DNA from: a virus
Taxonomy: Duplodnaviria > Heunggongvirae > Uroviricota > Caudoviricetes
Direction: 5' to 3' (one strand)
Length of the DNA stretch: 24,154 nucleotides
IMG/VR virus record: IMGVR_UViG_648276670_000008
Span: 1-24,154 of that record
Both the position numbers and the translations under genes were made by a program. Of the stretch, positions 1-12,628 are shown in pieces (the stretch's first letter is position 1; the number at the start of each line of letters is the position of its first letter). The notes beneath the pieces are model-generated. The model saw only the letters and a program-made list of their open reading frames with translations. It was not told the origin of the DNA and ran no database searches.

Positions 1-1158
1 ATGCTCACCGTTAAACAGATTGAAGCAGCAAAGCCGAAAGAAAAACCATACCGCCTACTCGATGGTAATGGCCTGTACCTTTATGTCCCTGTATCCGGAA
101 AAAAGGTCTGGCAGCTTCGCTACAAGATTGACGGTAAGGAGAAAATCCTGACCGTAGGAAAATATCCGCTAATGACTTTGCAGGAGGCAAGAGATAAAGC
201 ATGGACCGCGAGGAAAGACATCTCGGTTGGCATCGATCCGGTAAAAGCGAAAAAGGCTTCGTCTAACAACAATTCCTTTAGTGCGATTTACAAGGAATGG
301 TACGAGCACAAGAAGCAAGTCTGGTCAGTAGGCTATGCAAATGAACTTGCAAAAATGTTTGATGACGACATTTTACCTATCATCGGCGGCCTTGAAATTC
401 AGGATATTGAGCCGATGCAACTACTGGAAGTAATCCGCAGATTTGAAGATCGCGGGGCAATGGAGCGAGCCAACAAAGCCCGCAGAAGATGCGGCGAGGT
501 TTTCCGTTACGCTATTGTCACTGGTAGGGCTAAATATAACCCGGCACCTGACCTTGCAGACGCCATGAAAGGATACCGCAAGAAGAACTTCCCGTTTCTT
601 CCTGCAGACCAGATCCCGGCATTCAACAAAGAGCTGGCAACATTTTCAGGAAGTATCGTATCGCTCATTGCCACCAAGGTTTTACGCTATACAGCCCTAA
701 GAACGAAAGAGCTTCGTTCCATGCAATGGAAGAACGTCGATTTTGAAAACAGGATTATCACCATCGACGCCAGTGTGATGAAGGGACGCAAAATTCATGT
801 GGTCCCGATGTCAGACCAGGTGGTTGAACTTCTCACTACGCTAAGCTCTATCACCAAACCAGTATCAGAGTTTGTTTTTGCCGGGCGCAACGATAAGAAA
901 AAGCCAATCTGCGAGAACGCGGTGCTACTTGTGATCAAACAAATCGGCTATGAAGGTCTGGAAAGCGGTCACGGATTCAGGCATGAATTCAGCACGATTA
1001 TGAACGAGCACGAATGGCCCGCCGACGCCATTGAAGTGCAACTGGCACATGCTAACGGCGGTTCTGTGCGCGGGATTTACAACCATGCTCAGTATCTCGA
1101 TAAGCGCAGAGAAATGATGCAGTGGTGGGCGGACTGGCTTGATGAAAAGGTGAAGTGA
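1..1158 (+). CDS. int: Tyrosine integrase, P4-like family (site-specific recombinase)
   Basis: 385-aa ORF starting with ATG at nt 1. The N-terminus (MLTVKQIEAAKPKEKPYRLLDGNGLYLYV...WQLRYKIDGKEK) has the arm-domain pattern of P4-type integrases. The C-terminus has an H-x-x-R box (GHGFRHEF) and a likely tyrosine nucleophile in VRGIYNHAQYLDKR. The N-terminus looks complete although the gene begins at the window edge. Confidence 0.9.
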   Translation: MLTVKQIEAAKPKEKPYRLLDGNGLYLYVPVSGKKVWQLRYKIDGKEKILTVGKYPLMTLQEARDKAWTARKDISVGIDPVKAKKASSNNNSFSAIYKEWYEHKKQVWSVGYANELAKMFDDDILPIIGGLEIQDIEPMQLLEVIRRFEDRGAMERANKARRRCGEVFRYAIVTGRAKYNPAPDLADAMKGYRKKNFPFLPADQIPAFNKELATFSGSIVSLIATKVLRYTALRTKELRSMQWKNVDFENRIITIDASVMKGRKIHVVPMSDQVVELLTTLSSITKPVSEFVFAGRNDKKKPICENAVLLVIKQIGYEGLESGHGFRHEFSTIMNEHEWPADAIEVQLAHANGGSVRGIYNHAQYLDKRREMMQWWADWLDEKVK

Positions 1159-1395: not shown

Positions 1396-2463
1396 ATGAA
1401 CAGAAATAATTCATTCGATATTGCAAGACATATTGCTGCGCTAGCTGTTATTTTCAGCCATCACTTTGCATTCAATGGCATTCCTGAACCAAAAGTTTTA
1501 GGAATAACAAAACTTGGAACCTTTGCTGTTTTAGTTTTTTTCTCTATATCTGGGTATCTAATTGCAGGAAGCTATCTAAATAGCAGTTCTTTACAATCAT
1601 ACTATACAAAGCGTATAAAAAGAATCTTTCCAGCACTAATAGTATGCTCATTTGTCATGATATATATCATATGCCCTATTTTCGGTACAGGAAATGGCAT
1701 AGACTACATCTTATCAGAGAATGCATTTATTGCATTTTTAGACTACTCAACTCTTGGTTGGCATCCAAGCGACATAAATGGATTTGCCAGTAACTATATT
1801 CATAAGAATATGTTAAATGGAAGTTTATGGACTCTTGGATTTGAGTTTACAGCCTATGTGTTATTATCAATAATTTTATTTAGAAAGAAAAATATCATAG
1901 CATCAACATTTTTTGCTATTTGCTTTTTTATTGTTATCCAGTTATCCATTTTGAATGGCATAAAAATACCTCACACAGGTGATCTTAATAGGCTATCTCT
2001 TCTATGCACTACGTTTTTATGTGGTTCTTTGTTATATATTACAAGAAGTTATTGGTCCACAACAAGTGCAAAAATCACTCTAATAGTATTAGCTTTATCA
2101 TGTGCATTATTTATAAGTGAAAAAAATGAATATGATCTAATGTTTTATATTTCTGTTCCATTCTTTATAGTTCCATTATGCACATTGTTTACAGACAAAA
2201 TAATCAACGGCAAGTTTGATATATCTTATGGGATGTATATTTATGCTTATCCGATTCAGCAAATAATTGTAAACAAAGCTAACCTAGGATTTTATGGTTC
2301 ACTGTTTACGTCTTTATTATTAATAATTATTTTAGCTTGCGCATCGTGGTTACTTATTGAAAAGAGATTTTTGGTAAAAAGTAAAAGAAAGCAAAGGAAA
2401 TGTCGCATGTATGTTAAGCACTCTCTTATCTGCACATTGTATATATTGGTGAGCATTATATAA
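1396..2463 (+). CDS. Acyltransferase family 3 integral membrane protein, putative O-antigen O-acetyltransferase (Oac/OafA-like)
   Basis: 355-aa, very hydrophobic multi-TM ORF with ATG start. It carries AT3-type motifs (VLVFFSISGYLIAGSY and RIKRIFPAL) and a size close to phage Oac. The coding sequence is very AT-rich. Confidence 0.8.
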   Translation: MNRNNSFDIARHIAALAVIFSHHFAFNGIPEPKVLGITKLGTFAVLVFFSISGYLIAGSYLNSSSLQSYYTKRIKRIFPALIVCSFVMIYIICPIFGTGNGIDYILSENAFIAFLDYSTLGWHPSDINGFASNYIHKNMLNGSLWTLGFEFTAYVLLSIILFRKKNIIASTFFAICFFIVIQLSILNGIKIPHTGDLNRLSLLCTTFLCGSLLYITRSYWSTTSAKITLIVLALSCALFISEKNEYDLMFYISVPFFIVPLCTLFTDKIINGKFDISYGMYIYAYPIQQIIVNKANLGFYGSLFTSLLLIIILACASWLLIEKRFLVKSKRKQRKCRMYVKHSLICTLYILVSII

Positions 2464-2633
2464 TGTATTATTGTTGCAGCCTGATACATTATAAAGCAGA
2501 CATTTATGCTTGATGTTTTTTAGGTGTTGGTTTTCATAATTCACAACCACACACGTATAACAAACATTAAGACATATCGTCCAAAAGATAGTTTATGTTA
2601 CAATTTTAAAGAATAAACTTAAGATAATTGCAT

Positions 2634-2948
2634 ATGTTCAAAATTTTTTTAAAAGGAACCAGCGTACCAAAAGAAATTCTGTCCTTTCACAGGAGAAGTC
2701 ATGAAAGCGTACTTCCAAAGAGAGTAGAATTTACAAGAGCTGTTCTTATAACAGAAAAATATGGCGAGATCCATGTTAGACCAATTTATGGAATATTAAA
2801 AGCAAACAGTATTTACATTGATGAAATTGGCGGATGTATAGTAAAAGGCGGTATTAATGGTACAATTATTCACAACCTGCCAATATTTAACTTACCATCA
2901 ATAACAATAATGTTATTAATTGTAGCTTTGGCGTTAAATTATGTTTAA
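2634..2948 (+). CDS. Hypothetical protein (weak call) in AT-rich spacer
   Basis: The ORF-track start at 2628 is TTG; the first ATG is at 2634, giving 104 aa. There is no convincing Shine-Dalgarno. The stop overlaps the wzx-like start by 8 nt. No recognisable family. Confidence 0.2.
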   Translation: MFKIFLKGTSVPKEILSFHRRSHESVLPKRVEFTRAVLITEKYGEIHVRPIYGILKANSIYIDEIGGCIVKGGINGTIIHNLPIFNLPSITIMLLIVALALNYV

Positions 2949-4176
2949 TAAATTTGCTGTCCTCAGAAATTTTGCATCGCTAGGGTTAATGCAGGTCATT
3001 AACTATGTGCTTCCTATTGTTATAATACCGTTCCTGGTTAATAAAATAGGAATTTATAATGTAGGCTTAATTGCAACATTCACCGCCATAGCGGCATATA
3101 TGCAGCTAGTTATAGATTATGGCTTCAATCTTTCTGCAACAAGAAATATATCAAAGGACGGATATGATGATTATCATGCATCGATAATAAGCAGTTCTGT
3201 TTTTGTCATAAAGGTGACAATGTCATTAGCATTAATTGCATTATCATTTTTCATTATGAAATTGGCGTCAAACTCAGAAGAACATATAATAACATTTATG
3301 TTTACAGTTGGCATTGTTGTTTTTCAGTCTTTATTTCCAGTTTGGCATTTTCAAGCCGCAGAAAGAATGCACTACATAACAATGTGTAATGGTGTACCAA
3401 AATTGATATCAGCCTGCATGATTTTTTACTTTGTAAGCTCTCCAGGTGATACATGGAAGGTGCAGGCATGCTTTATGTTAGGAGCCGCAGCATCTTTTAT
3501 TTTATCTTTGTTTATTTTGAAATCTAAATTTAATTTTAGGTTATTGATATCATTCACTGAATGCAAAAATCAGATTATTGATGGGTATGCTATTTTTTTA
3601 GCACGATTGGCGTCAGGGCTATACAAAAATTTCAATGTGCTTATTCTCGGAGCATTTGCTGGAACTGCGGCAGTAGGAACTTATTCTATCGCAGAAAGAA
3701 TAATAAGAAGCGCTCAAATGGTTCAGAATGTAGTTGGTGATACTCTTTACCCTTTATTCTCTAAAGAATTTACTGGCAATAAATTATTTTTCAAACACGC
3801 AGCAGATAAATACAAGTGGCATATAATAATATTTTACACTCTTGCATCACTAGCTATTTTCTACCTCTCTGGAATAATTGGGAAAATAATGGGTGGGGCA
3901 TCAGCAGATAATGTATCCTCTTGCCTTAAAATAATGTCAATCGCCTTTCTTTTTGGCGGGATGAACTACGTTTTAGCTATACTTGGATTAACATCTTGTG
4001 GGTATGCCAAACAATTTTCATTGTGCGTAATATCGGCAGGTTTGTTTAATGTTCTATGTGCTACTTTTTTATCTTTTTTCTTTTCTTATTATGGAACTTC
4101 AGTAGCTCTTGTTTTAAGCGAGTTTTTTCTCCTTTGCTTTGTTATTTTTTATTCTAAAAGGACTGGTATACTATGA
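2941..4176 (+). CDS. wzx: Wzx-like polysaccharide/O-unit flippase (polysaccharide biosynthesis protein, MOP/PST superfamily)
   Basis: 411-aa multi-TM protein. The N-terminal region (LMQVINYVLPIVIIPFLVNKIGIYNVG) resembles the conserved Wzx/PST N-terminus. Very AT-rich. Its stop overlaps the downstream GT2 start (ATGA at 4173-4176). Confidence 0.75.
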   Translation: MFNKFAVLRNFASLGLMQVINYVLPIVIIPFLVNKIGIYNVGLIATFTAIAAYMQLVIDYGFNLSATRNISKDGYDDYHASIISSSVFVIKVTMSLALIALSFFIMKLASNSEEHIITFMFTVGIVVFQSLFPVWHFQAAERMHYITMCNGVPKLISACMIFYFVSSPGDTWKVQACFMLGAAASFILSLFILKSKFNFRLLISFTECKNQIIDGYAIFLARLASGLYKNFNVLILGAFAGTAAVGTYSIAERIIRSAQMVQNVVGDTLYPLFSKEFTGNKLFFKHAADKYKWHIIIFYTLASLAIFYLSGIIGKIMGGASADNVSSCLKIMSIAFLFGGMNYVLAILGLTSCGYAKQFSLCVISAGLFNVLCATFLSFFFSYYGTSVALVLSEFFLLCFVIFYSKRTGIL

Positions 4177-5066
4177 CTCCATTTACTACTGTCTTGGTTA
4201 CATATGCTGATAGAGGCCACCTGTTAAAACAAGTTGTATCATCAGTAGTATCATCCGGGTGTGATAATATAATTATTATAGATAATGGGAGTCATGAGAG
4301 TAGCAAGAAAATAATAAACTCGATGCCTGTTAATTATAGTGACATAAAATTCACTATTCATAAAAATGAAAAAAATGAAGGCTCCGCGATTGCATTCGGC
4401 ATTGGGATGGATCTGGCATCAAGTAATGAAAACAAAAATGAAATAGTGTTATTTCTGGATGATGACAATCTACCTAAAGATGGAGCAATTCAAGATGCCA
4501 TCAAATTCTCATTGTCAGATAATGAGAATAAAAATGTTTACTTTTTGCTCCGTGAAGACAGGCCGCACTATATTGAATTTGTAAGAACAAAAAACCAAGA
4601 TGTTCTCCTTGGAGAAAAAAACTCTTTTATGTCATTCACTTTGAAAAAATACTTAAAAAGCATAGTAAATAAGCTTAACAAAACAGAAATACAAGAAAAG
4701 TATGATTCATTCAGCGATAGTTGCATTCAAATCCCTTGCGGTCCATACGGAGGAATGTTAACAAAAAAATCAATCTTATCCAATGGGATAAGACCATTCA
4801 AAGATATGGTGTTATATTTTGACGATACAAAATATACTTATGATCTATCATTATCTGGAGTAAAGCTATTTCTTTTGACAAAATGTTTCATTAATGATAT
4901 TGATGATTCATGGTCAGCGGTTAAAACAAAAAAACATCCTCACCACTCTTTGAGGCTGGTGAGTTTAAAATATCACATACAATTAGAAATAGGGTGTTTT
5001 TTGAACTTTACGCGACAACAAACAATGTGCCAATATATGTTGTTAATATATTTTTCTTCATGTTAA
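4173..5066 (+). CDS. Glycosyltransferase family 2, WbbL-like (soluble, cytoplasmic-face type)
   Basis: 297-aa ORF. N-terminal GT-A pattern (TTVLVTYADRGHLLKQVVSSV...IIIIDNGS), a DxD-like LFLDDDN motif, and a C-terminal region resembling WbbL-type rhamnosyltransferases (GGMLTKKSILSNGIRPF...VLYFDDTKYTYDLSLSGVKLF). No C-terminal TM anchor of the GtrB type is evident. Translationally coupled to wzx. Confidence 0.7.
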   Translation: MTPFTTVLVTYADRGHLLKQVVSSVVSSGCDNIIIIDNGSHESSKKIINSMPVNYSDIKFTIHKNEKNEGSAIAFGIGMDLASSNENKNEIVLFLDDDNLPKDGAIQDAIKFSLSDNENKNVYFLLREDRPHYIEFVRTKNQDVLLGEKNSFMSFTLKKYLKSIVNKLNKTEIQEKYDSFSDSCIQIPCGPYGGMLTKKSILSNGIRPFKDMVLYFDDTKYTYDLSLSGVKLFLLTKCFINDIDDSWSAVKTKKHPHHSLRLVSLKYHIQLEIGCFLNFTRQQTMCQYMLLIYFSSC

Positions 5067-5149: not shown

Positions 5150-5178
5150 TATAAAGAAAAGGCCCACTAAGTGGGCTT
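5150..5178. terminator. Bidirectional intrinsic terminator between convergent GT2 and tailspike genes
   Basis: GC-rich inverted repeat GGCCCAC-TAA-GTGGGC(T) at 5161-5177, flanked by an A-run upstream and TTTATCT downstream on the plus strand. On the minus strand the stem is followed by TTTTCTTTAT, so it fits best as the tailspike terminator. Confidence 0.5.
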
Positions 5179-5188
5179 TATCTGAATA

Positions 5189-7093
5189 TTAAAACTCTGG
5201 AGCATACGTTCCTGAGACAAAAATAGTGGCACCCAGTGATTTAATAAAATCAGGTTTCACCAGAAGGCCACGCAAAGATACGGCAACCCATTTGCTGGTT
5301 TGAACGTTTGCTGCCTGTACCAAAGTTTTTGTAGTTGAGGGAGCATACACACCAACAGTTGCCTGCGGGTCTTCTAACGTTGTAGTGGTGTAATAAGATG
5401 CTATTGGTATTCTGGTTGTATGACCATGAGTTAATGTGACATTCCCATTTCCGGTTGGTTCTGCATTGACAATTGATGATACCCAAGATGGTGGTATTGT
5501 AGGGGGTCTCCCATACCTAATCTCCCCAGTATCTACATTAACTATAATTTCTAGATCTGCGTAGATTGACACTCGTAAGTTGTAGTCTTTCCCTACGTTG
5601 AACCTGTCAGCAATTGCGTAAAGTCCGGTAGTAAGAGATGATCTATCCATGTCCGCAGTGAAGTCAAACCAACACGCTGCGTTATCAGAAACTGTAAATA
5701 AAAGAGAGTTATCATCTTCAGCCACAGCAACCTTACAAAAATTAGAAGGACGAATGACGCCAGTATCGTTATTAATATTTAAAATTTGCCATGATGAGCT
5801 CGAAGATGCATAACGCGCGGCAGCTGCGCAGTGTTTTGCTCGTAACCAAGGAGCGATGCCATTTGCCGTATACTGCATAAAGTCATTGACTGTCTTTGTC
5901 TTTGTTCCTCCAGCTTCCACTGACCAGAGTCCTCGGGCAGCGCCAGCCCCCATTGTGTTATAACCTTTTTGGGTATAATGCACACCTTCTGTACCAACGT
6001 TTCCATCGCGATTCAAAAAAGATGGGCAGCCATCAAAAGCTGTAACAGCAATATCTCTACCATTGACAACGTAACGCTGTGCGTTTTGAATAGTTTGCCA
6101 AGAATATTCTGGTCTATTTTTAGGGCACCCTACCGTACAGTTCGCGAATCTTGCCATAGGTATATCTGAAGATAGATCATCTATAAGTTTCACGAAAAGT
6201 CCGCGATAAGTATCAAATGATGTGCCATTTAGTTGATCTGTTTCCCCTTGGTGGAAAAGAACGTATACTTTACCTACAGGAAGCTCCTGAGTATTCATTC
6301 TTGCAAGTGTGTTATTAACAGACGACACCAAAAGCTCATAATAACCATCACCAACTGGTGATTTAGATAATTGAGAAATTGATGTTGCTCCACGTCCACA
6401 ATGTACAACTACAGCTCCCCTTCCGCTTAAACGATACCATTCATTGGCAAACTCCCCCCAGGCATGCCCTGAGGATGCAACTCCCGATGAACTAACCATA
6501 TTCTGAATTATTGGCTTTATAGTTCCATCCCTGAAATCGTACATTAACGATTTTGGAAGAGGGTCAGGAAAGCCAGATGTATCACCTGATAAAATAGCCT
6601 CGCCTGCACTATTTGACTGCCCATACGTAACAAATATATCGTATACATCTGGTGACTCAAGATATTCTGTCGCAATAACATTACTTGCTATTTTTGATGC
6701 TGTTACTCCAGATATTATTGCTGAACTATTATTTTCTGATAGCCTTCTTTCTAATTGATCTGGATCATACTTCAATACATTTGGAAAATAGAACTGCTGC
6801 GAACCATACGCATCATAAACAGCCATAGAATGTCCTTGCACGGTAACGAACTTGGCAATCTGTCCGTTATATACCGGATATCCAGCAGCGTTAATGGTGA
6901 TTGGTTGAGAAACAGGAACGTGAGAACCGTCCTCGCTCTCCATATAAACCTGAATCTGGTTTTCAGGATTTACAGGATCAGTGTCAATCTGACCGATATA
7001 AATTTTACCATTGGCATTAGCTTTAAATGAACGAGATAAAGTAAATAATTGACTTGGTTGCGATACAACGATATTTGGCGTGATATCTGGCAT
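5189..7093 (-). CDS. 9: Tailspike protein: P22 gp9-type head-binding domain fused to a SASA/SGNH-type esterase-like receptor domain
   Basis: 634-aa ORF with ATG and GGAG Shine-Dalgarno. The first ~115 aa closely match the P22 tailspike N-terminal head-binding domain as I remember it (…[24 protein letters not shown]…TVQGHSMA…NVLKYDPDQ). The remainder is unrelated to the P22 beta-helix and carries esterase-like motifs GQSN (158-161), QGETD (282-286) and a His in GVHYTQ (372). Confidence 0.9.
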
Positions 7094-7195
7094 TGATTTG
7101 CTCCTGGCATAGAAAAGCTGTGTAAGATATAACTTTCACAGACTTGCATTAAATTCGGTTAAAATTAGTTAATTACTCTGGGTGGAGGGTTGGCT

Positions 7196-11324: not shown

Positions 11325-11780
11325 CTATCTCCCGTGATTCAGGAAGTCGATTAGTTCTTCGCGTGTAGCACTGTAAAATGTCACGTCATCCACGCCTTTG
11401 AAGTATTTCTTGATGGTTCCTACACGCTTAAGGCCAATCATTGCGCAGTACATCTGCCCGTGGCGGAATTTGCGTGCGGCGAACGATGTGACGCACTGAA
11501 CGGTGGTGTTAGTCAGAATGTATCGCCAGAACGCCAGACCGATTTCCTTGCTGAATCCACGAACCTCTGGCAGGTACATGGCGTGGCAATCGAATGTAAG
11601 CGGCTGAATCTCCTGATAGTAAACAATGCCGCCGAACTGCCCGTGCACGTTCACCTCGAAGTAACGGCATTCAGGCTTGTAGTCGTATCCATCACCGTTG
11701 TTGCTCCCGGCGATAATGTCGGGGTGATTTCCCACGGCTTCTATCAGGTCGATGTTTCGCGTTGGTTTGAACTGAATCAT
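11325..11780 (-). CDS. 14: P22 gp14-like virion assembly protein (assignment by position)
   Basis: ORF between the needle and gene 7 homologues. The ORF-track start at 11783 is GTG; the ATG at 11780 overlaps the needle stop. I cannot confirm the sequence against P22 gp14 from memory. Confidence 0.5.
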   Translation of the reverse strand: MIQFKPTRNIDLIEAVGNHPDIIAGSNNGDGYDYKPECRYFEVNVHGQFGGIVYYQEIQPLTFDCHAMYLPEVRGFSKEIGLAFWRYILTNTTVQCVTSFAARKFRHGQMYCAMIGLKRVGTIKKYFKGVDDVTFYSATREELIDFLNHGR

Positions 11781-12628
11781 CACTGCTCCGCGATTATCTT
11801 GATGGTTGTGGCAGTAAACGCCGCACCATTCGACTGAATGGTTAACGTACTGCCATTTGTGGCAAGAAAGCCGTCTTTATCCACGCTGAAGAACGTAGCT
11901 AACAATATGTTATCGGTTGTTGTCGCCGAGTTACGACTGCTTACCAGTGTGTCAGGAACAGAGCCGGAAAAAGTTAGCTGCATTGACCTGTTGGCGGTTC
12001 CGCTGGGCCACGTCCCGACGATCGACAGCTTGAAGAACAAGGTTTTGTTCTCGTTGAACACAACCATCTTGTTGTTAACGGTGTCGAAGAATGGTGCCAA
12101 CGTGCCGGATGACGGCGTGAGCGTTTTCAGCAGGCTAACAAGGTTGGTCGGCGCTGTCGGGATGGTTACAGATACGCCAGAGTAAACAACCTCTGACTTC
12201 TTGCGCGTAGTGGCATACTCAAGAGCATCGATGCGCGTTTCATGGTCTGAAAGCGTGTTTTGAATGGCGACAACTTCATCCGTCAGATAATCAATATCGT
12301 TTTCTGCTGTCGTTAATCGTGAATCAAGGCCGACTATCGCCGCTTCTGCGTTAGTGATCCTTGTTTCGTGGTCCTGAATCTTCGCTTCAGCTGATGCCAG
12401 TCGAATTTCGTGATCGACCAGAATCACATCCTGCTCATCGTTCCTGACCTGTGCATCATAAGCGCCCTGTCCGGCCTCGTTGGCCTTGTTAGCCACGTTA
12501 CCAACATCAGTACCCTGTGCAATAACGTACAGCAGATATGACTGCGAGAAGATATTGCGTGGAAGGACTGATGTGTCGAGCCGTGCAGCCTGAACAATAA
12601 CAGGTGTATTGAGATTCGAATCCGCCAT
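11780..12628 (-). CDS. 26: Tail needle (gp26 homologue) with Sf6-type C-terminal knob domain
   Basis: 282-aa ORF. The N-terminal ~60 aa match the P22 gp26 N-terminus (MAD…[22 protein letters not shown]…[10 protein letters not shown]). The C-terminal ~130 aa are a beta-rich, non-coiled-coil sequence; length and layout fit the Sf6-type knobbed needle rather than the 233-aa P22 needle. Confidence 0.85.

Follow-up and report, generated by a model that had tools for sequence, protein, structure and literature searches.

We propose that the gene at positions 5189 to 7093 of a 24,154-nucleotide stretch of viral DNA (IMG/VR record IMGVR_UViG_648276670_000008, positions 1 to 24,154; hereafter the window) encodes a P22-type virion tailspike that would bind a host surface polysaccharide and O-deacetylate it without cutting the glycan chain. 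We give this reading, which builds on domain composition, fold, conservation, modular transfer and prophage context, a probability of roughly 75%. Classical P22-type tailspikes are homotrimers, present in six copies per virion, whose beta-helix receptor domain has glycosidase activity. In the protein described here, a P22-type head-binding domain is joined to a predicted carbohydrate esterase of the SASA family and to an all-beta C-terminal domain. An earlier, sequence-only reading of this DNA had described the gene as such a chimera and had given no strand; we place it on the minus strand. The features of the gene and its immediate surroundings are as follows.

5189..7093, minus: tailspike open reading frame, 634 residues plus stop codon (open reading frame list and translation, ATG to stop)
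6749..7093, minus: residues 1-115, P22-type head-binding (virion adaptor) domain (PF09008; matches to P22 and Sf6 structures; similarity to phage c341)
6644..6748, minus: residues 116-150, neck or linker, start of the mobile receptor cassette (homology boundary; linker identities; helix in the model)
5909..6643, minus: residues 151-395, predicted SASA-type SGNH carbohydrate O-acetylesterase domain
6611..6622, minus: GQSN block I, residues 158-161 (39 of 39 relatives; aligned with GQSN of 1zmb)
6614-6616, minus: codon of Ser160, predicted nucleophile
6236..6250, minus: QGETD block III, residues 282-286 (conservation; aligned with HQGESD of 1zmb)
5978..5980, minus: codon of His372, predicted catalytic base, in block V GVHY (His372 and Tyr373 in 39 of 39 relatives)
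5192..5908, minus: residues 396-634, C-terminal all-beta domain made of two beta-sandwich halves
7101..7105, minus: AGGAG ribosome-binding site, 8-12 nucleotides upstream of the ATG (read from the sequence)
5153..5176, minus: intrinsic-terminator-like GC-rich hairpin GCCCAC-TTA-GTGGGC followed by a T-run, CTTTTCTTT (terminator scan and sequence reading), directly 3' of the tailspike stop codon

A P22-type adaptor carries a SASA-type esterase domain

The N-terminal part of the protein is readily assigned. Pfam Head_binding (PF09008) covers residues 1-113 with an E value of 4.6e-65, and in a sequence search of the PDB the structure of Sf6 gp14 matches residues 1-120 at 4.2e-60 and that of P22 gp9 at about 1e-48. 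Over residues 1-139 the protein is 74% identical to gp14 of phage c341 (BLASTP). By analogy with P22 and Sf6, residues 1-115 would dock the spike to the tail hub. Past residue 120, the PDB sequence search returned no match to any solved tailspike, and the right-handed parallel beta-helix receptor domain of the P22, Sf6 and HK620 type is absent from our structural model, which consists of an alpha/beta/alpha esterase and beta-sandwiches behind a neck with a predicted helix at residues 132-142. The two parts of the earlier reading that concerned this region, namely a P22 head-binding domain at residues 1-115 and a remainder unrelated to the receptor domains of P22, Sf6 and HK620, are therefore borne out. 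PHROGs matches are restricted to the adaptor, and no NCBIfam model matches the tailspike.

Residues 151-387 match the Pfam family SASA (PF03629) with an E value of 6.9e-13 and a score of 49.2 bits, against a curated gathering score of 24.8 bits, and the match spans positions 2-222 of the 226 in the profile. Chance cannot account for this combination of domains. When the esterase part was searched as a single sequence against the PDB, the best match was 1zmb, at E values of only 0.58 and 0.12; a profile built from 39 relatives matched the SASA-family structures 2apj (1.8e-9) and 1zmb (3.2e-5). In a direct alignment with 1zmb the GQSN and HQGE(T/S)D blocks coincide. An AlphaFold2 monomer model built from the alignment of the 39 sequences has a mean predicted local distance difference test score (pLDDT) of 80.9, with residues 150-400 (esterase) and 420-634 (C-terminal domain) mostly above 90, and the esterase part is confidently predicted as a three-layer alpha/beta/alpha SGNH fold whose nearest neighbours are members of the SASA family. 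The fold-comparison scores for the esterase domain were:

At4g34215 (2apj), root-mean-square deviation 2.1 Å over 217 residues: 26.8
1zmb: 26.0
E. coli NanS (3pt5): 23.5
Cyanopodophage Pan3 tailspike (9vyh), 290 residues aligned: 21.5
XAC1771 (7kmm): 18.8
Mammalian SIAE: 17.4
Generic GDSL enzymes: 15-18
Phage SFP21A gp09: 15.3
G7C gp63.1 (4qnl): 15.0

Foldseek agrees in ranking SASA enzymes nearest and additionally returns the Moo19 and B2 spikes and the deacetylase FI8. This ranking places the modelled domain in the SASA type of the SGNH clan, and not in the GDSL type to which the proven esterase spikes belong.

The 39 relatives are 33-98% identical in the esterase domain. Eleven positions are invariant in all of them (Y157, G158, Q159, S160, N161, S207, G209, G283, E284, H372 and Y373), and four more, H210, H281, Q282 and D286, are nearly so, the last three being present in 37 of 39 each. 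We take the invariance of the serine, the histidine and the oxyanion-hole blocks to argue for a working enzyme. Each motif that the sequence-only reading had quoted is exact (GQSN at 158-161 with Ser160, QGETD at 282-286, GVHYTQ at 370-375 with His372), and its proposals of a SASA profile match, an SGNH fold, and Ser160 and His372 as catalytic candidates agree with the results given here.

The C-terminal domain is probably spike-specific and evolves rapidly

As had been noticed from the sequence, the C-terminal segment of about 240 residues has no family match in Pfam or NCBIfam. It also has no close solved relative; among the structures that weakly resemble it are fibre-tip receptor domains and lectins. 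A scan of 1.84 billion representative proteins, with representatives defined at 50% identity, matched it in 15 clusters, one of which is a low-complexity artefact; each real match occupies the far C-terminal end of a protein of 478-1026 residues. Among the matches that were scanned with Pfam, the SASA domain directly precedes this domain in every case, and the domain was never found without SASA. It diverges much faster than the esterase: the relative P0002 is identical to our protein at 100, 100 and 98% of positions in adaptor, neck and esterase and at 74% in the C-terminal domain, and the corresponding values for P0020 are 89, 83 and 71%, and 38%. We infer from this behaviour a spike-specific distal domain for specificity and/or trimer assembly, which probably acts in sugar recognition and/or trimer stability and thereby would set host specificity.

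Neck, esterase and beta-domain travel as one cassette

The chimeric nature of the protein, as first proposed, is confirmed by relatives with unrelated N-terminal adaptors that match ours over residues ~117-634, with identities reaching 79%. Homology to these proteins begins at about residue 117, just past a conserved DPDQ motif, and in comparisons with relatives carrying a PF18668-type N-terminus the linker is 46-66% identical and the head-binding region 10-20%. Judged by these alignments, the neck, the SASA esterase and the beta-domain are a single mobile cassette that was apparently acquired horizontally. The cassette stands behind P22 head-binding domains in E. coli, E. fergusonii, Enterobacter cloacae, Proteus mirabilis and Pectobacterium, behind TSP1/gp66-type N-termini (PF18668), behind T7 tail-fibre N-termini (PF03906), and, at 53-56% identity, in gp84 of the N4-like Klebsiella phage KP8 and in T7-like Klebsiella phages of about 40 kb; it was seen solely behind phage tail adaptors.

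Its distribution is sparse. A tblastn search with the receptor part found the cassette in 13 of 50,697 phage records, all from Klebsiella and Vibrio phages and with no P22-like isolate among them, and at detectable DNA similarity it occurs in 6 of 5,426 complete E. coli genomes. The exact tailspike protein is present on at least 11 contigs, annotated as 'hypothetical protein', and public databases also contain relatives of the same architecture from Escherichia, Enterobacter, Proteus and Pectobacterium. The spike genes of E. coli EC6622 and MS 115-1 share 82-88% DNA identity with ours over window positions ~6384-7033 on the minus strand (residues ~21-236), that is, from the adaptor through the first ~85 residues of the esterase, beyond which similarity becomes undetectable. 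This pattern suggests a recombination breakpoint inside the esterase domain, besides those at the domain borders.

Proposed function and alternatives

In the mechanism that we favour, the spike would bind an O-acetylated host surface polysaccharide, most likely the O-antigen, and would remove acetyl groups, with Ser160 as nucleophile, His372 as base and an oxyanion hole made up of the GQSN and QGExD blocks; the glycan chain would be left uncut. Deacetylation without chain cutting would therefore mean that the phage works its way to the outer membrane by repeatedly binding and deacetylating the polysaccharide, as c341 and G7C do, and not by shortening it in the manner of P22.

Several points weigh against this proposal. 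At the third position before the histidine (E369 here), E or D is present in no more than 28 of the 39 relatives, with insertions shifting the acid in the others, and E369 is therefore at most a candidate for the acidic partner of the triad. Esterase activity is a prediction for the tailspike and its close relatives alike, and the searchable literature yielded no assayed SASA-type phage spike. The model is a monomer and is silent on the presumed trimer; its head-binding part is of low confidence, as expected because a single chain of an intertwined trimer was modelled. The substrate, finally, might be O-antigen, capsule, colanic acid or enterobacterial common antigen.

The variable acid, together with the predicted status of catalysis, is what could be said for a SASA domain that is catalytically dead and serves as a carbohydrate-binding scaffold only. 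We regard this as very unlikely, since 39 sequences of 33-98% identity all retain the serine, the histidine and the oxyanion-hole blocks unchanged, which would be unexpected without catalytic constraint. Still less credible is a soluble prophage esterase of the NanS-p kind that releases acetate or sialic acid for host nutrition and is no virion protein: a complete P22 head-binding domain is present, the gene occupies the tailspike slot past the ejection proteins, and the cassette occurs behind phage tail adaptors only. We accordingly rejected an identity as stand-alone NanS or NanS-p esterase on domain architecture and gene position.

The choice of substrate and the division of labour within the spike leave more room for alternatives. 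Among phages, KP8 and T7-like phages of Klebsiella have the cassettes nearest to ours (53-56% identity). The capsule is the main determinant of host range in Klebsiella phages, SGNH receptor-binding proteins of Klebsiella are associated with K-loci, and the P22-like phage CUS-3 is annotated as capsule-targeting, all of which would fit an esterase spike acting on capsule (K antigen), or else on colanic acid or enterobacterial common antigen. We nevertheless hold such a substrate to be rather unlikely, given that the characterised P22-like spikes, including the c341 deacetylase, act mostly on O-antigen and that the prophage carries Oac-like acyltransferase, Wzx-like and GT2 genes typical of O-antigen conversion. 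A somewhat better prospect, if still a minority one, is that the C-terminal beta-sandwich is the true receptor-binding lectin and that the esterase is mainly receptor-destroying, serving release from debris or decoy glycans and not entry. Its identities relative to the esterase (74% against 98% in P0002, 38% against 71% in P0020) form the pattern expected of a specificity determinant, and fibre-tip receptor domains and lectins are among its weak structural neighbours.

A bolder extension of our preferred reading of a deacetylating spike, which we consider speculative and improbable as a whole, joins the spike esterase and the Oac-like acyltransferase of the prophage (1396-2463) into an erase/write pair acting on one host glycan, with the SASA-linked C-terminal domain as a spike-specific lectin of new fold that determines serotype specificity. 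In such a scheme the virion would strip the acetyl mark at entry, and the lysogen would re-decorate the polysaccharide, at another position or with the help of the Wzx-like and GT2 proteins, so that incoming spikes of the same type would no longer bind or process it. If true, the pairing of a deacetylase spike with an 'O-antigen acetylase' in c341 would make erase/write a recurrent P22-like design.

Prophage context

The window corresponds to the right arm of a P22-like (Lederbergvirus-type) prophage. It opens with an integrase gene (1-1158, plus strand), followed by a low-GC cassette, the spike and a 665-residue protein of the Phage_P22_gp16 family, beyond which lie Inj_translocase, gp7 (P22_gp7), DUF2824 and a needle with Sf6-type knob; Phage_stabilise and P22_Tail-4 are also found upstream of the spike in the P22-like late operon. 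The tailspike gene thus directly follows the P22-type ejection-protein genes gp7, gp20 and gp16, in the slot at the end of a P22-like late operon. The first 7.3 kb of the window are 100% identical to scaffold GL884282.1 of E. coli assembly GCA_000176635.2, and the prophage is inserted at yfdC / tRNA-Arg / intS. The integrase adjoins yfdC, mlaA and the tRNA-Arg gene, and the EC6622 integrase at the corresponding site is annotated as prophage integrase IntS. Two further features belong here:

1396-5066, plus: low-GC conversion-like cassette between integrase and spike (31-34% GC against ~50% for the phage)
11780-12628, minus: tail needle with Sf6-type knob (PF16532)

The low-GC cassette encodes an Acyl_transf_3 (Oac-like) protein (1396-2463, plus), 94% of whose length aligns with Sf6 Oac at 34% identity. 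The cassette also has a 106-residue open reading frame without family and genes for a Polysacc_synt protein resembling Wzx and for a glycosyltransferase of the GT2 type. A megablast search found DNA of this cassette in 0 of 5,426 complete E. coli genomes. Related prophages with SASA spikes in E. coli and Proteus share the late-gene order and lack the conversion cassette; an obligate link between spike and cassette was rejected because the cassette is missing from SASA-spike prophages of E. coli (EC6622 and L006) and Proteus.

Relative to three further assemblies of this prophage (L001, L003 and L004), the window has two 1-bp indels within 7.3 kb. The GT2 protein (4173-5066, plus) is 297 residues long here and 332 elsewhere, with the frame shifting past ...AVKTKK, and the acyltransferase is called at 355 residues here and 340 elsewhere. 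The difference could be genuine, as a frameshift or through phase variation, or could stem from a sequencing error in an older assembly. The otherwise near-identical prophage L003, which has the same spike, and L006, which has a related one, carry a 233-residue needle without knob, so that the needle tip has been swapped independently of the spike.

Implications

One cassette of neck, esterase and beta-domain moves among at least four virion adaptor types across Enterobacterales. The textbook model of entry by P22-like phages relies on O-antigen cutting, and the SASA spikes together with c341 offer a tractable system in which to study how a podovirus passes the O-antigen layer by deacetylation alone. 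Host-range prediction centred on depolymerases misses esterase spikes, and spikes of this kind could be put to use for the specific detection or removal of O-acetyl epitopes on the surface glycans of E. coli.

Comparison with known systems

Esterase spikes are established for E. coli phage G7C (gp63.1), Shigella phages Moo19 (gp82) and B2 (gp48-49), Acinetobacter phage Aristophanes (gp41) and also Pectobacterium phage Possum. The G7C, Moo19, B2 and Aristophanes spikes differ from ours in having a generic GDSL-type SGNH domain and other adaptors and in belonging to lytic phages, and neither the PDB search nor tblastn against the 50,697 phage records revealed sequence similarity between them and the tailspike. 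Membership in the Vi-phage or G7C family of esterase spikes was rejected, as the 13 tblastn matches include none that is Vi-like or G7C-like. For Acinetobacter phages and prophages, spikes of the SASA type are on record as predictions, and a 2026 study counts SGNH receptor-binding proteins among the most prevalent in Klebsiella prophages, two of them being active on p-nitrophenyl acetate.

The cellular SASA/CE6-like esterases (2apj, 1zmb, NanS 3pt5, XAC1771 7kmm and SIAE) share with the tailspike the family, the fold, the GQSN and QGExD blocks and the histidine, but they are single soluble enzymes of 15-20% identity that have neither a virion adaptor nor the C-terminal beta-domain. The tailspike of Cyanopodophage Pan3 (PDB 9vyh, 2025) is a solved spike with a SASA-like domain, yet it belongs to a cyanophage, has another adaptor and is 13-16% identical. 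Homologues of the whole receptor cassette are KP8 gp84, which its annotation describes as a tail fibre containing an SGNH esterase domain (PMC6950046), and tail proteins of T7-like Klebsiella phages (VLCpiA3a/b, K48PH164C1, phi1_146018 and others), with 53-56% identity in the esterase and C-terminal domains over ~485 residues. These proteins differ from ours in their N4-type or T7-type adaptors, in the lytic lifestyle of the phages and in the Klebsiella host, and their esterase function is likewise predicted.

The closest precedent is the Lederbergvirus c341 (g341c, NC_013059). Its gp14, of 792 residues, combines Head_binding over residues 1-115 with a GDSL esterase over residues 183-366, and its virions and baseplate parts deacetylate the O-antigen of S. 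anatum (Iwashita & Kanegasaki 1976, as cited in PMC5380687). The sequence-only reading had offered no characterised esterase on a P22-type scaffold; c341 gp14 is one, with its deacetylase published in 1976. Both spikes use the same virion scaffold and gene slot, after gp20 and gp16, both have an SGNH-clan esterase in place of the beta-helix glycosidase, and each has a gene for an O-antigen acyltransferase downstream of it. In c341 (NC_013059, 3001-7119) the 'O-antigen acetylase' gene is directly downstream of, and convergent with, the deacetylase spike. Two unrelated esterase lineages thus each place a spike that removes acetyl groups beside a conversion gene that adds them. The c341 enzyme, however, is of the GDSL type (PF13472/PF00657) and not of the SASA type, its C-terminal part is different, and BLASTP detects no similarity between the two proteins beyond residues 1-139 (best E value 0.46). 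PF09008 combined with PF13472/PF00657 GDSL domains also constitutes a second type of esterase spike on the P22 scaffold among E. coli prophage proteins (P0105-P0114); several of these clusters have 40-64 member sequences each, and their receptor part is ~52-55% identical to Vibrio phage tail proteins. The principle of a deacetylating P22-type spike is thus already known, and the SASA-type spike overturns nothing in current understanding; the SASA subfamily on a P22 scaffold is the sole aspect not described before. It is in the esterase subfamily that the present spike differs from classic c341, and with it a second, unrelated subfamily, SASA, joins the repertoire of P22-type tailspikes.
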